This document shows positions 12,248-57,328 of a stretch of 62,945 nt of DNA, piece after piece; position 1 is the first letter of the stretch; each line of letters opens with the position of its first letter. The stretch lies in the NCBI GenBank assembly GCA_041650935.1, contig JBAZKH010000009.1, forward strand, positions 1-62,945, read 5' to 3'. A program made the translations under genes and the position numbers. The DNA comes from Candidatus Omnitrophota bacterium. GTDB lineage: Bacteria > Omnitrophota > Gorgyraeia > 2-01-FULL-45-10. The notes under the pieces were generated by a model. That model was not told where the DNA came from. It made no database searches and worked only from the letters and a program-made list of their open reading frames with translations.

Positions 12248-12322
12248 GGGCAGCTAGCTCAATGGCGGAGCAATCGGTTTACATCCGATAGGTTACAGGT
12301 TCGAGTCCTGTGCTGCCCACCA
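12248..12322 (+). tRNA. tRNA-Val (anticodon TAC), CCA encoded
   Basis: Hand-folded cloverleaf. Acceptor GGGCAGC/GCTGCCC, anticodon stem ATCGG/CCGAT with loop TTTACAT, T-loop TTCGAGT. Confidence 0.93.
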
Positions 12323-12452
12323 TGAACCACTCACAAAAATTTCTGTCGAAATTTTTGTTCGGGTTCATGGCACAGCCAGGTAGTAATTTTTGTGAGTGGT
12401 GAATGCCCTGTACCTAAAAAATGCCGAAGGCATTTTGAATGGTACAGGGCAT
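12321..12452 (+). repeat. nested, mutually exclusive hairpin element between tRNA-Val and the GIY-YIG gene
   Basis: Clamp catgaacc-actc-[acaaaaatttc tgtc gaaatttttgt]-tcg-ggttcatg-gcacagcca. Alternative 15-bp pairing ccactcacaaaaatt (12327) / aatttttgtgagtgg (12384). Second hairpin atgccctgtacc..aaaatgcc gaag ggcatttt..ggtacagggcat. Confidence 0.8.
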
Positions 12453-12481
12453 AGCAAACACTCGATAACTCAAAATAACGC

Positions 12482-12733
12482 TTGAATCGACGCTGGTTCT
12501 TATATATAATTGAGTGCGCAGACGGTTCTTTATATACCGGAATTACGACTGATCTGGTAAGGCGGATAGCCAGGCATAATCAGGGTCGCGCCGCTAAATA
12601 CACAAGAGCCAGAACGCCTGTAAAATTAGTTCATTCAGAAATCTGTGAATGCGAGTCTTCGGCAAGGAAAAGAGAGGCGGAAATAAAGAAGCTCTCTTGT
12701 TACGATAAGCTGAAGATAATTAATAAGCATTGA
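12482..12733 (+). CDS. small GIY-YIG nuclease-domain protein (catalytic domain only)
   Basis: 83 aa with a TTG start. Motifs are FLYIIEC-DGSLYTGIT, RRIARHN and a conserved Glu in REAEIKK. Confidence 0.8.
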   Translation: MNRRWFLYIIECADGSLYTGITTDLVRRIARHNQGRAAKYTRARTPVKLVHSEICECESSARKREAEIKKLSCYDKLKIINKH

Positions 12734-12845
12734 TATTCCCCCGGTTCTTCCTGTTCGCCGGAACCTCGGGATAAAAATTTCTATCGCATTGATATATCCC
12801 TCAGCCGTTCTTATTCATCACGGCTTCGGGATGAAATTTTCTATC
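12727..12845 (+). repeat. degenerate tandem duplication (59 + 60 bp), each copy with its own hairpin
   Basis: Both copies start gcattgatat and end (a/t)tttctatc. Copy 1 (12727-12785) contains the GIY-YIG stop codon. Copy 2 (12786-12845) abuts tRNA-Asp. Identity is roughly 70% by eye. Confidence 0.8.
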
Positions 12846-12855
12846 GAAAATTTCA

Positions 12856-54335: not shown

Positions 54336-54340
54336 TCTAG

Positions 54341-54444
54341 GGATTCGAAGCCAATTTTCGCCGACCAACGGGAGGGAAAGCCCTCCGGGCGACAGAAAAT
54401 TGGCTGGCTAGGAGCCGAGCTCTGCGAGGCGGATAGCCGAATCC
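54341..54444. repeat. 104-bp nested hairpin element immediately 3' of tRNA-Arg
   Basis: Outer stem ggattcg/cgaatcc, middle stem gccaattttcgcc/ggcgacagaaaattggc, apex ggaggg-aaag-ccctcc. The following 21 nt resemble the tRNA 3' end (16/21 matches). Confidence 0.8.
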
Positions 54445-54500
54445 CGTTAGCCACCCCAGCGTCTCTTATGAAATTTGAAACCGAATTAGGCGATAATTAG

Positions 54501-54823: not shown

Positions 54824-55396
54824 ATGACGAAAAACGTTTATATAATCGCTGGGCCGAACGGATCGGGTAAAACAACATTTGCGACTATGTTTTTGCCTGA
54901 TTATGTTAAGTGCCCGAACTTTGTGAATGCCGACCTGATCGCTCAAGGGCTGGCGCCGTTTGAACCTCGTAGTGCGGCCATTAAGGCTGGGAAGCTTGTT
55001 CTGCAGCAAATTCATGAATTTGCTGAACACGGTGTTGATTTTGCTTTTGAAACAACGCTATCCGGGAAATCTTATGTAAATCTACTTTCCGCGTTAAAGG
55101 CGAAAGGTTATGGGCTGCATTTGTTTTTCTTATGGATTCCCAGTCCGGAATTGGCAATAGAACGTATTAAAGATAGGGTAAGAGAGGGTGGGCATAATGT
55201 GCCTGCCGAAGACGTCCGACGCCGGTTTATCCGCGGTATCAATAATTTTTTTAAATTGTATGAGTCATTGTTTGACACCTGGACGTTGTTCGATAATTCC
55301 AGGGCAAAACCTGTATTGATAGCGAAGAGAAAAAATGGCCACAAGGAATTTAACAATGAAGAATTGTTCAAAATGATACAAAAAGGCGCGAGGTAA
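54824..55396 (+). CDS. zeta-toxin-family P-loop kinase-like protein
   Basis: 190 aa with Walker A IIAGPNGSGKTTF, FVNADLIA and ETTLSG, as in zeta/PezT-like and related AAA kinases. Confidence 0.8.
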   Translation: MTKNVYIIAGPNGSGKTTFATMFLPDYVKCPNFVNADLIAQGLAPFEPRSAAIKAGKLVLQQIHEFAEHGVDFAFETTLSGKSYVNLLSALKAKGYGLHLFFLWIPSPELAIERIKDRVREGGHNVPAEDVRRRFIRGINNFFKLYESLFDTWTLFDNSRAKPVLIAKRKNGHKEFNNEELFKMIQKGAR

Positions 55397-55399
55397 CAA

Positions 55400-55552
55400 A
55401 TGAAAAAAAGAATGTCTTTACAAGATAAAGCCGAAGCGGCACTAAAGAAGGCGGTGAGGCAGGTTGTGGAACGGCATAAAAAAACCGGCCGTTCACTTGC
55501 CGTATGGCAGAACGGTAAAACCGTTCGTATCTCTCCAAATACAGTTAGGTAG
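55400..55552 (+). CDS. small basic protein (50 aa), possible partner of the zeta-like kinase
   Basis: MKKRMSLQDKAEAALKKAVRQVVERHKKTGRSLAVWQNGKTVRISPNTVR. ATG lies 3 nt after the kinase stop. It is below the ORF-track cut-off. Confidence 0.4.
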   Translation: MKKRMSLQDKAEAALKKAVRQVVERHKKTGRSLAVWQNGKTVRISPNTVR

Positions 55553-55668: not shown

Positions 55669-55775
55669 CATGTACCACTCGCGTTTGCCCGTAGGTGGTA
55701 CATGCCCTATACCGGAGTAAAAACGAAGTTTTTACGACTGGTATAGGGCAAACGCTCGGGTACATGGCACGGCCA
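55669..55775 (+). repeat. clamp-type structured element 5' of the second GIY-YIG gene (homologous to 12321-12378)
   Basis: catgtacc-actc-[gcgtttgccc ... ccctatacc..agtaaaaac gaa gtttttac..ggtataggg caaacgc]-tcg-ggtacatg-gcacggcca. The flanks match the tRNA-Val-linked copy. Confidence 0.8.
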
Positions 55776-55817
55776 TGAACCAGCTACATATTTTATATTT
55801 AGACCAAAGTAACATTT

Positions 55818-56075
55818 ATGTATTACGTTTATGTCTTATTGAGCGAGAAAGATAAAAACTTTTATATAGGGTTTACTGAGAATATAGAGCAGCGTCTCGA
55901 CGAGCATAATGCCGGTAATAATGTAAGTACCAGATCAAGACGGCCCTTTAGCCTTATATATTACGAAGGTCATGCTTCAAAATCCGATACTTTGCGGAGA
56001 GAGGGATATTTTAAGACTTCAAAAGGCAAGACGACTCTGAGGCAGATTCTGAAAGACGCATTATCAAAAAAATAA
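55818..56075 (+). CDS. small GIY-YIG nuclease-domain protein (catalytic domain only)
   Basis: 85 aa with YYVYVLLSEKDKNFYIGFT, RLDEHN and a conserved Glu in RREGYFK. Confidence 0.8.
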   Translation: MYYVYVLLSEKDKNFYIGFTENIEQRLDEHNAGNNVSTRSRRPFSLIYYEGHASKSDTLRREGYFKTSKGKTTLRQILKDALSKK

Positions 56076-56185
56076 CCCAACCAATTGCTTCTTACGCAAA
56101 AAAGCACCTGATTTAATCTCTCGCAGAAAAACAGCCGATTCCGCCACTTTTGCCTCTCTTTATCTCTGGTTTACCCATAAAAAAA

Positions 56186-56224
56186 GAAGCTACCGCTAAT
56201 AAGGCGGTGGAGCTTCACTTTTTG
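56186..56224. terminator. bidirectional terminator-like hairpin
   Basis: An upstream A-tract (aaaaaaa), stem gaagctaccgc / gcggtggagcttc, then actttttt. Confidence 0.55.
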
Positions 56225-56406
56225 GGTGGTTTAGTGGATTTTAGTGCAGTTTTTGCGGTATTTGCGGTTTAAAATGTCTTGATCAATTTTATCAGCTTAT
56301 CGAGCTTCTCTTCGATTTCTGTGGTCGTCAAAGTAGAAGGCAAGGATTATTATTTGGCGCTAGCCGGAAACCATAACGAGGGACTTCCACAAAAAATTCG
56401 CAGCAG

Positions 56407-56932: not shown

Positions 56933-56981
56933 TTCTTTCCGGGATAAATTTTATCCCGGATAAAATGGATCCCGGAAAGAA
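56933..56981. repeat. 13-bp inverted repeat
   Basis: ttctttccgggat ... atcccggaaagaa, with an internal third copy of atcccgg. Confidence 0.8.
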
Positions 56982-56988
56982 GGTAATA

Positions 56989-57167
56989 GATTAGCGCGGA
57001 GAAATTCTCCCGACGTAGGGGAGGTTTAAACCTCCCCTACGTCCTCGTTGGGATACTTCTTTACGCTAATGAAGGAGGTAACAATTTAGCCAAAAGAAGC
57101 TCTCCGTCGTAGCCGACATTTAAATGTCGGCTACAATATCGTCGGGCAACTTCTCTATGCTAATCTA
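56989..57167. repeat. 179-bp composite palindromic element (two subunits)
   Basis: Outer inverted repeat tagattagc/gctaatcta. Subunit 1 carries the perfect 32-nt palindrome gacgtaggggaggtttaaacctcccctacgtc (57012-57043). Subunit 2 carries the 26-nt palindrome gtagccgacatttaaatgtcggctac (57109-57134). Each subunit ends in gctaat..gaaggag. Confidence 0.8.
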
Positions 57168-57328
57168 TTACTGAAGGAGAGTGCGGTTAGACATGAAAAA
57201 GCTAGATCTAAGGCATTGTATTACGTTAAATATATGATATACTTCTGTTAGACCAATGAACGAGAGCATTTCATTGGATATTTTTTGAGCGATTAATAAA
57301 CGTCTTTAAAAAGTTGCAGGTGATAATT

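Follow-up and report, generated by a model that had tools for sequence, protein, structure and literature searches.

REP, BIME and REPIN elements are short imperfect palindromes that occur with RAYT transposases, and include the GTAG- and CGTC-tagged REPs, reportedly described by Di Nocera and colleagues in 2013. Rickettsia palindromic elements (RPEs), which are said to have been described by Ogata and colleagues in 2000, are palindromic repeats also found in frame in protein-coding genes, where the frame is left open. Phage T4 segB is a free-standing GIY-YIG homing endonuclease gene in a tRNA cluster, and Seg proteins include a DNA-binding domain and act on long recognition sites in dsDNA. 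Single-domain GIY-YIG enzymes of the Ssn type were recognised in 2025 as site-specific cutters of single-stranded DNA (ssDNA) paired with hairpin repeats; they bind the repeat (NTS/SRM), which has an orientation, in its ssDNA form and cleave immediately upstream of it (PMC11893778). The Ssn genes are flanked by their own repeats, a layout that the authors note is IS-like and REP/RAYT-like (Chenal et al. 2025, Nat Commun, PMC11893778, which cites Nunvar 2010 and Ton-Hoang 2012 on REP/RAYT); tRNA and Omnitrophota are not mentioned in that paper. Beyond the Ssn paper, a literature search for tRNA-linked GIY-YIG hairpin elements returned only homing endonucleases of fungal mitochondria.

The window analysed here is the whole stretch of 62,945 nucleotides of contig C9 (JBAZKH010000009.1), part of the 2.13-Mb, 17-contig assembly GCA_041650935.1 of Candidatus Omnitrophota bacterium. 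As in the Ssn system, single-domain GIY-YIG genes of about 85-95 aa stand beside copies of a genome-dispersed hairpin repeat. The identification of both ORFs as GIY-YIG was borne out by Pfam PF01541: the gene of lineage g1 lies at 12482..12733 on the plus strand (83 aa, TTG start, E = 8e-21) and that of lineage g2 at 55818..56075 on the plus strand (85 aa, E = 6e-18). The two proteins are 28% identical, the domain spans nearly the whole of each, and the catalytic core is intact, with residues Y5, Y16, R26, H30 and E62 (g2) invariant in nine aligned sequences. The only PDB sequence matches of g2 are the UPF0213 proteins 1ywl and 1zg2 (E = 4e-8 and 9e-7), and an NCBIfam search of the nucleases returned no family. 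A sequence-only reading had proposed that both genes are preceded by an element with the same flanks and a variable interior, and all its letters and positions were confirmed: the A/T difference in the stem (CATGaACC/GGTtCATG versus CATGtACC/GGTaCATG) is compensated on the opposite arm, and the interior measures 26 nt in copy 1 and 75 nt in copy 2. We consider it likely, with a probability of roughly 60%, that this clamp is a unit of a mobile family of REP/RPE-like DNA hairpins, for which a single-domain GIY-YIG nuclease is the likely partner, by analogy with Ssn/NTS.

The first locus starts at tRNA-Val(tac) (12248..12322, plus strand; ARAGORN; Rfam tRNA 67.9 bits), within whose CCA copy 1 begins, as had been read: the clamp 5' arm opens with the encoded CCA at 12320-12322. 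Copy 1, here unit 1 (12320..12370, plus strand, 'F' orientation; strict scanner and ssDNA fold), has the layout CCATGAACC-A-C-TC, a 26-nt hairpin (12333-12358), and TC-G-GGTTCATGG, followed by CACAGCCA. Alone, as ssDNA, it folds exactly as the clamp (-17.4 kcal/mol, z = -7.4), and a near-identical relative lies behind tRNA-Ala at C7:87466-87516. Array comparison identified CACAGCCA (12371..12378, plus strand) as a conserved 3' tail that re-forms a ...CCA end; in other arrays the following unit begins at such a CCA, and the GGCA tail is present across phyla. Adjoining the tail, a half-unit (12379..12405, plus strand; sequence and fold) is the reverse complement of the unit 5' half (CATTCACC-ACTC-ACAAAAATT), and the same block occurs in arrays behind tRNA-Val(gac) on C2, tRNA-Arg(tct) on C3 and tRNA-Ala(ggc) on C7. 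This half-unit provides the alternative 15-bp pairing that had been pointed out, 12385-12399 with 12327-12341, which is the minimum-energy fold of the plus strand in context. Unit 2 (12404..12451, minus strand; unit comparison and fold), with the stem TGCCCTGTACC/GGTACAGGGCA, is in the opposite orientation and slightly decayed, TTA replacing TCA; its intact sister at C3:69281-69328 lies 21 nt upstream of another GIY-YIG gene. In the strain comparison, one other contig was 100% identical across the locus and another ended inside tRNA-Val, and the exact GIY-YIG protein sequence was found on no other record.

Copy 2 (55669..55766, plus strand; strict scanner and fold) is a composite unit, with the layout CATGTACC-A-C-TC, a 75-nt interior (55681-55755), and TC-G-GGTACATG, followed by GCACGGCCA to 55775. 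Within it are an inner helix, GCGTTTGCC/GGCAAACGC, an internal repeat of the 3' arm (GTGGTACATG, 55695-55704) and a complete nested unit in reversed orientation, TGCCCTATACC-A-G-TC-hairpin-TC-C-GGTATAGGGCA (55703..55750, minus strand; strict scanner and fold). The tail GCACGGCCA and an orphan 5' arm without a partner (CCATGAACC, 55773-55781) occupy 55767..55781 on the plus strand. The same architecture recurs in different letters at C2:229953-230055 and in two other genomes, upstream of a 56%-identical GIY-YIG gene in G023 (L005) and behind tRNAs in G021 (L056, L057). A tRNA remnant upstream of copy 2 was considered and rejected, the best local alignment score being within the shuffled range. 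Between tRNA-Arg(acg) and copy 2 sit a zeta-toxin-like kinase ORF (54824-55552; Pfam Zeta_toxin, E = 9e-13) and an adjacent 50-aa ORF; since the closest GIY homologues, in G292 and G254, directly follow tRNA-Arg(acg), this pair may be a later insertion.

Across the genome, the general unit opens with a stem of some 9 bp whose last letters are GWACC; then come a bulged A, a single N-N' pair, a TC/TC mismatch and a variable inner hairpin, with a return side of TC, N', the return arm and then GCAC(A/G)GCCA. Stem classes include CCATGTACC, CCATGAACC, CCCTGTACC, CCCAGCACC, CACTGTACC, CACCGTACC and AGCAGAACC. The exact long pattern shared by copies 1 and 2 has two more copies in the genome, and the generalised unit has 30 strict copies, compared with 0-2 per shuffled genome (strict scanner, ten shuffles). 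Units are 32-100 nt long, occur on both strands and in tandem, and are nested in one another's loops. They thus have the features of REP-type repeats, being short imperfect palindromes in many dispersed copies, in both orientations and mostly intergenic. The earlier statement that the element is not a simple terminator held, as a GC-rich hairpin with a T-run was found at neither copy and no terminator was called at either. A suggested comparison with Rfam gave no family beyond tRNAs: scanning the whole window at gathering thresholds and the two loci at permissive ones returned only tRNAs and two chance miRNA matches.

Covariation was analysed in 75 distinct 'collapsed' units, drawn from this genome and from others, each comprising the arms, the junction and the three outermost interior bases of each side, joined by a fixed AAAA linker. 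Paired cells amounted to 92.2%, compared with 69.6% in shuffles, in a set whose outer arms are biased because they served to select it; the N-N' and inner pairs were not selected for. Changes on both sides were present at 11 of 13 pairs, no shuffle of 500 attained the covariation score, and the N-N' identities were U-A in 29 units, C-G in 28 and G-C in 11. An unbiased test of N-N' used the pattern GWACCANTC...TCNGGTWC, which leaves this pair free, in 400 other Omnitrophota genomes. N-N' was complementary in 84 of 127 distinct matches (25% expected, p = 2e-22), in 56/60 when the interior closes and in 6/27 when it does not. The idea of a structured, covarying stem with a swappable interior is supported by these results.

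The units are concentrated at tRNA 3' ends, an association that the sequence-only reading had raised from copy 1: in this genome, 23 of 30 have a tRNA or tmRNA 3' end no more than 350 nt upstream of them (0.2 expected). Twelve abut the tRNA, their 5' arm borrowing its own CCA or CA, and 11 of the 12 are forward on the tRNA strand; because the unit itself ends in ...GCAC(A/G)GCCA, further units stack behind. A cross-phylum scan of one genome per prokaryotic species was carried out with a minimal 24-nt unit, GWACC-A-N-TC-RCTTCGY-TC-N'-GGTWC, yielding at least 119 stretches, with an estimated one or so expected by chance. These were distributed over Omnitrophota, Firestonebacteria, Elusimicrobiota and Patescibacteria (Peribacteria, Peregrinibacteria, Doudnabacteria, Saccharibacteria and Gracilibacteria), together with a few MAGs labelled Planctomycetes, Gammaproteobacteria or Spirochaetia. 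In the 81 cross-phylum copies examined, N-N' was complementary in 79, and 26 had a tRNA end at most 300 nt upstream. All ten CCA-abutting copies are forward, behind ten different tRNA genes with nine amino-acid identities; most of the copies that follow after another 37-102 nt are reversed. Distribution within the phylum is patchy: among 401 Omnitrophota genomes there were 28 pattern matches in this one and 17, 9, 7 and 6 in a few others, the reversed-pattern control giving at most 3 per genome, and a pattern scan of three same-genus genomes found no match.

Related loci bear on how the units at locus 1 arose. The order pyrE, tRNA-Val(tac), g1 GIY-YIG, tRNA-Asp is present and unit-free in two congeners (G246 and G228) and in G187 of the same family, and pyrE, tRNA-Val and g1 GIY-YIG are found in the same-family genomes G039, G033 and G163, without a tRNA-Asp call in the stretch read. 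The g1 orthologues in these six genomes are about 60% identical and lack units; the tRNA-to-gene spacer is 9 nt in G246 and 81 nt in G228, elsewhere it is unit-free, and G163 has a half arm only. As the related loci are unit-free, 12323-12481 is a lineage-specific insertion, and on this comparison of sequences the clamp is an insertion, not a conserved leader. Units also lie within ORFs. In G037, a 32-nt minimal unit is in frame in three of them (L037, L038 and L041), namely a GT4 glycosyltransferase (in the linker between its domains), an AsnB-type amidotransferase (in its amino-terminal part) and a membrane protein. In this genome, a nested unit at C1:270639-270702 lies within a 9,642-aa ORF, which stays open. 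In leaving ORFs open the in-frame units are like RPEs; the units as a whole differ from RPEs in that most copies are at tRNA ends, that they are much shorter (32-100 nt) and that a candidate enzyme can be named. The in-frame minimal units add about 15 residues, for example RDPVPVASLRYGAGKG in the GT4 linker.

The candidate enzyme is suggested by the g2 lineage. Small GIY-YIG genes were found in 38 of 40 genomes of the phylum, so that presence alone says little. In a set of 22 g2-type loci (53-68% identity, 21 genomes), a perfect 8-bp NNNNNACC clamp hairpin lies within 240 nt upstream of the gene in 16 of 22 loci and downstream in 3 of 22, compared with a background of 1% of random 240-nt windows from this repeat-rich genome. 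The interiors of these upstream clamps vary, comprising bare ACGTWGG loops, ANTC/TCN' junctions and composites; this variation is the 'swappable insert' that had been described. In nine genomes (G292, G254, G234, G235, G183, G383, G326, G094 and G243), which carry the closest relatives of the 55818 gene from other families, the order is tRNA or tmRNA, CCA-abutting clamp, GIY-YIG gene.

Within this genome, paralogues of g2 lie at C3:69012-69260 (86%), C6:122324-122575 (63%) and C2:446-691 (48%). Five intact and three broken small GIY-YIG copies are present, seven of the eight adjoin a tRNA gene, and the broken copies, shortened or frameshifted, lie beside arrays. The resident tRNA-Glu gene at C2:1-810 is interrupted within the anticodon stem by a cassette, the order being 5' half, two units, GIY-YIG, intact tRNA-Glu, the same two units, 3' half, and the intact tRNA-Glu has a different T-arm. 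More distant GIY-YIG lineages have other GC-rich hairpins and often also incomplete tRNA copies, full of hairpins, ahead of an intact tRNA. Two side observations concern these loci. In G187 (L006) a layout like that of C2:1-810 occurs at another tRNA gene (5' part only), and the g2 gene with about 240 nt downstream (55818-56312) is an old duplicate of C3:69260-68810 (74% identity). The upstream array composition differs between the g2 duplicates, which suggests that arrays turn over faster than the gene.

The association is far from uniform. A GIY-YIG gene or remnant lies within 350 nt of only 9 of the 30 units in this genome, 21 not being near one, and a GIY-YIG gene within 500 nt of only 4 of the 81 cross-phylum copies, the other 77 having none nearby. 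Within tRNA flanks of this genome, units are present in 4 of 5 with a GIY gene and in about 13 of 39 without, a conditional association that is no more than suggestive; units and GIY genes both favour tRNA flanks, so that part of the co-location could be indirect. At the genome level, co-occurrence of the narrow ANTC/TCN' pattern with close g2 homologues was modest (8/75 versus 7/325 with at least three matches), because the narrow pattern misses simpler-interior clamps at many g2 loci. The proposed link to the nucleases divides: upstream clamps in 16/22 loci uphold it for the g2 lineage, and at locus 1 the linkage of the 12482 gene (g1) is probably a by-product of the unit and the gene both lying at a tRNA end. 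Likewise, of the two suggested roles, self-propagating behaviour is supported and a cis-regulatory RNA for these nucleases is not.

The units are inserted directly against the encoded CCA in tRNA and tmRNA genes with many identities, and their orientation there is fixed; they stack behind earlier units, enter each other's loops and occasionally land in frame in ORFs. On the reading of a mobile hairpin family with a GIY-YIG partner, and by analogy with the Ssn nuclease and its NTS/SRM hairpin, the g2 nuclease would be the cognate enzyme of the clamp and may bind the junction (bulged A, N-N', TC/TC) on ssDNA and nick nearby. The clamp together with a GIY-YIG gene would then be the autonomous form, and hairpin-only arrays would be non-autonomous or left over. 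At locus 1 (12320-12451), units may have colonised the tRNA-Val 3' end, by chance before a resident nuclease gene of another lineage. We infer the nuclease activity and the mobility of the units, and the nuclease would leave the copying step to be explained, because a GIY-YIG nuclease alone cannot join DNA. The hairpin repeat is most likely selfish DNA, and the clamp elements are not a private regulatory switch for the two GIY-YIG genes. As a tentative extension, to which we give rather less than an even chance, the family may represent an undescribed structure-guided mobile DNA, in which clamp and GIY-YIG nuclease recognise any tRNA or tmRNA hairpin-plus-CCA, probably as ssDNA, insert in a single orientation, rebuild the target, chain and nest, and which may have passed by horizontal transfer between lineages with small genomes (Omnitrophota, Patescibacteria, Elusimicrobiota and Firestonebacteria).

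A role at the RNA level would likewise explain why units at the CCA have a fixed orientation. Units transcribed with the tRNA could act as 'punctuation' in the precursor RNA, in 3' processing, as a stability or insulator signal, or in separating the tRNA from a co-transcribed GIY-YIG mRNA; some RNA-binding factor would then recognise the conserved bulged A together with the UC/UC loop. The forward first units overlapping the CCA (11/12 here, 10/10 across phyla) agree with such a role, as does the position of clamps upstream, not downstream, of g2 GIY genes. So do the conserved alternative pairings (compare G023 and G021) and the tRNA-to-GIY interval of locus 1, which has no promoter-like site and fits co-transcription; one promoter-like match at this locus begins at the GIY start codon. 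We nevertheless regard an RNA-level role as doubtful. The units are missing in all three congeners and at orthologous tRNA loci, later units of an array are as often reversed, and units are nested, some of them in frame within ORFs. No Rfam family matches, and there are almost no G-U pairs, a rarity more in keeping with a palindrome that must pair in either DNA strand than with a structure formed in RNA alone.

If the units are mobile DNA, a RAYT could in principle mobilise them. Their behaviour is REP/BIME-like in several respects, as short imperfect palindromes with many copies in both orientations, mosaic arrays and a patchy distribution among close relatives; forward-then-reverse unit pairs resemble REPIN doublets, three Y1_Tnp genes are present in the genome, and in G230 a unit and a Y1 gene are about 160 nt apart. 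Mobilisation by an IS200/IS605-type Y1 (HUH) transposase, with an incidental GIY-YIG link, would account for this, and we judge it quite improbable. The Y1 genes here have their own unrelated flanking palindromes with no GWACC words nearby, Y1 genes occur in unit-free congeners and are missing from the unit-bearing G292, and the 16/22 clamp-upstream rule for g2 GIY genes would go unexplained. RAYT was rejected as the mobiliser on the differing Y1 flanks and on a phyletic pattern that does not track the units. Unlike REP elements, the units have no tie to Y1 transposases and no GTAG tag at the hairpin foot, prefer tRNA 3' ends, and are associated with a GIY-YIG nuclease gene. As a separate observation, two Y1 genes (C4:38917-39664 and C6:88786-89688; L076 and L074) have palindromes or inverted repeats of their own on either flank, for example a perfect CTTGCCGGGTGAATTCACCCGGCAAG on both sides, which suggests a separate RAYT/REP-like system in the same genome.

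A dedicated riboswitch- or attenuator-like leader RNA for the two GIY-YIG genes, for which the element upstream of both genes and its mutually exclusive helices might speak, is hardly credible, given that most copies lie away from nuclease genes, that the 12482 orthologues lack the element, that it occurs in both orientations and inside ORFs, and that Rfam has no match.

For the proposed mobile hairpin family with a GIY-YIG partner, the nearest described system is Ssn. With Ssn the family shares a repeat that is oriented by unpaired flanking bases, with TC 5' of the helix and pyrimidines 3', the presence of the nuclease's own dispersed hairpin repeat near the gene (16/22 g2-type loci), and the pairing of different nuclease lineages with different hairpins. 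Unlike in Ssn, an extra 9-bp outer stem encloses the recognition-like junction, the units nest, stack and abut the tRNA CCA in fixed orientation, and the hairpins are upstream only, whereas Ssn hairpins lie on both sides of the gene. The SRM pattern HGTCWYN(0-2)YYVSBRHN(0-5)WNVSBRGN(0-2)RNCYNB was not enriched in the genome (13 matches versus 4-14 in eight shuffles), and none of these matches overlapped a unit or lay within 1 kb of a GIY gene. The clamp and its GIY-YIG gene seem to resemble the Ssn system by analogy, short of demonstrable membership in the Ssn family. With segB the loci share a GIY-YIG gene lodged between tRNA genes, and the split tRNA-Glu with its spare copy at C2:1-810 looks like invasion with repair; the proteins here differ from Seg proteins in consisting of the catalytic domain only and in being accompanied by hairpin repeats. 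What is distinctive compared with other hairpin-repeat-plus-small-nuclease systems is the two-storey unit and its cross-phylum lodging on tRNA CCA ends.

The role of Ssn-type GIY-YIG nucleases outside Neisseria is a question that bears on this repeat family, which offers a defined, covarying, recognition-like junction, an 85-residue candidate enzyme and a universal target in the CCA end of tRNA genes. If the pairing is true, it would provide a new enzyme/site pair for ssDNA tools and account for the many hairpins in tRNA flanks, the broken copies of tRNAs and the hairpins inserted in frame in genomes of uncultured small-celled bacteria. For annotation, clamp elements should not be labelled regulatory RNAs or terminators.

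Other tRNAs of the genome carry other repeated trailers, such as CCA followed by TTCTGCT... or by TGGTTCGAC..., and a repeated structured trailer was seen on nearly every tRNA of the genome. The TGGTTCGAC trailer follows a few tRNAs and accompanies broken g1-type GIY copies on C3. A third trailer family, CCA followed by TTCTGCTNCGCC...GGCTTCGCAGGAAT, comes right after at least 12 tRNA genes, for example from 12934 of the window onward. Right after the tRNA-Arg(acg) CCA, 54337-54459 of the window holds a different repeat (TCTAGGGATTCGAAGCCAATTTTCGCCGACC...), with 90-93% identical copies at C3:20754-20875 and C3:196617-196726 and similar trailers after tRNA-Ser, tRNA-Trp and tRNA-Leu. From the GIY-YIG stop to tRNA-Asp, 12734-12855 contains two tandem copies of another hairpin repeat, each about 55-60 nt long (TCCCnC-hairpin-TCGGGAT-AAAWTTTCTATCG); the orthologous spacer in the congener G246 is only about 20 nt. 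Further short dispersed repeats at 56170-56223 and 56982-57171 have 94-99% identical copies on C1, C3, C5, C6, C7 and C8, and near-perfect palindromes are present at 56933-56981 and 57012-57043.
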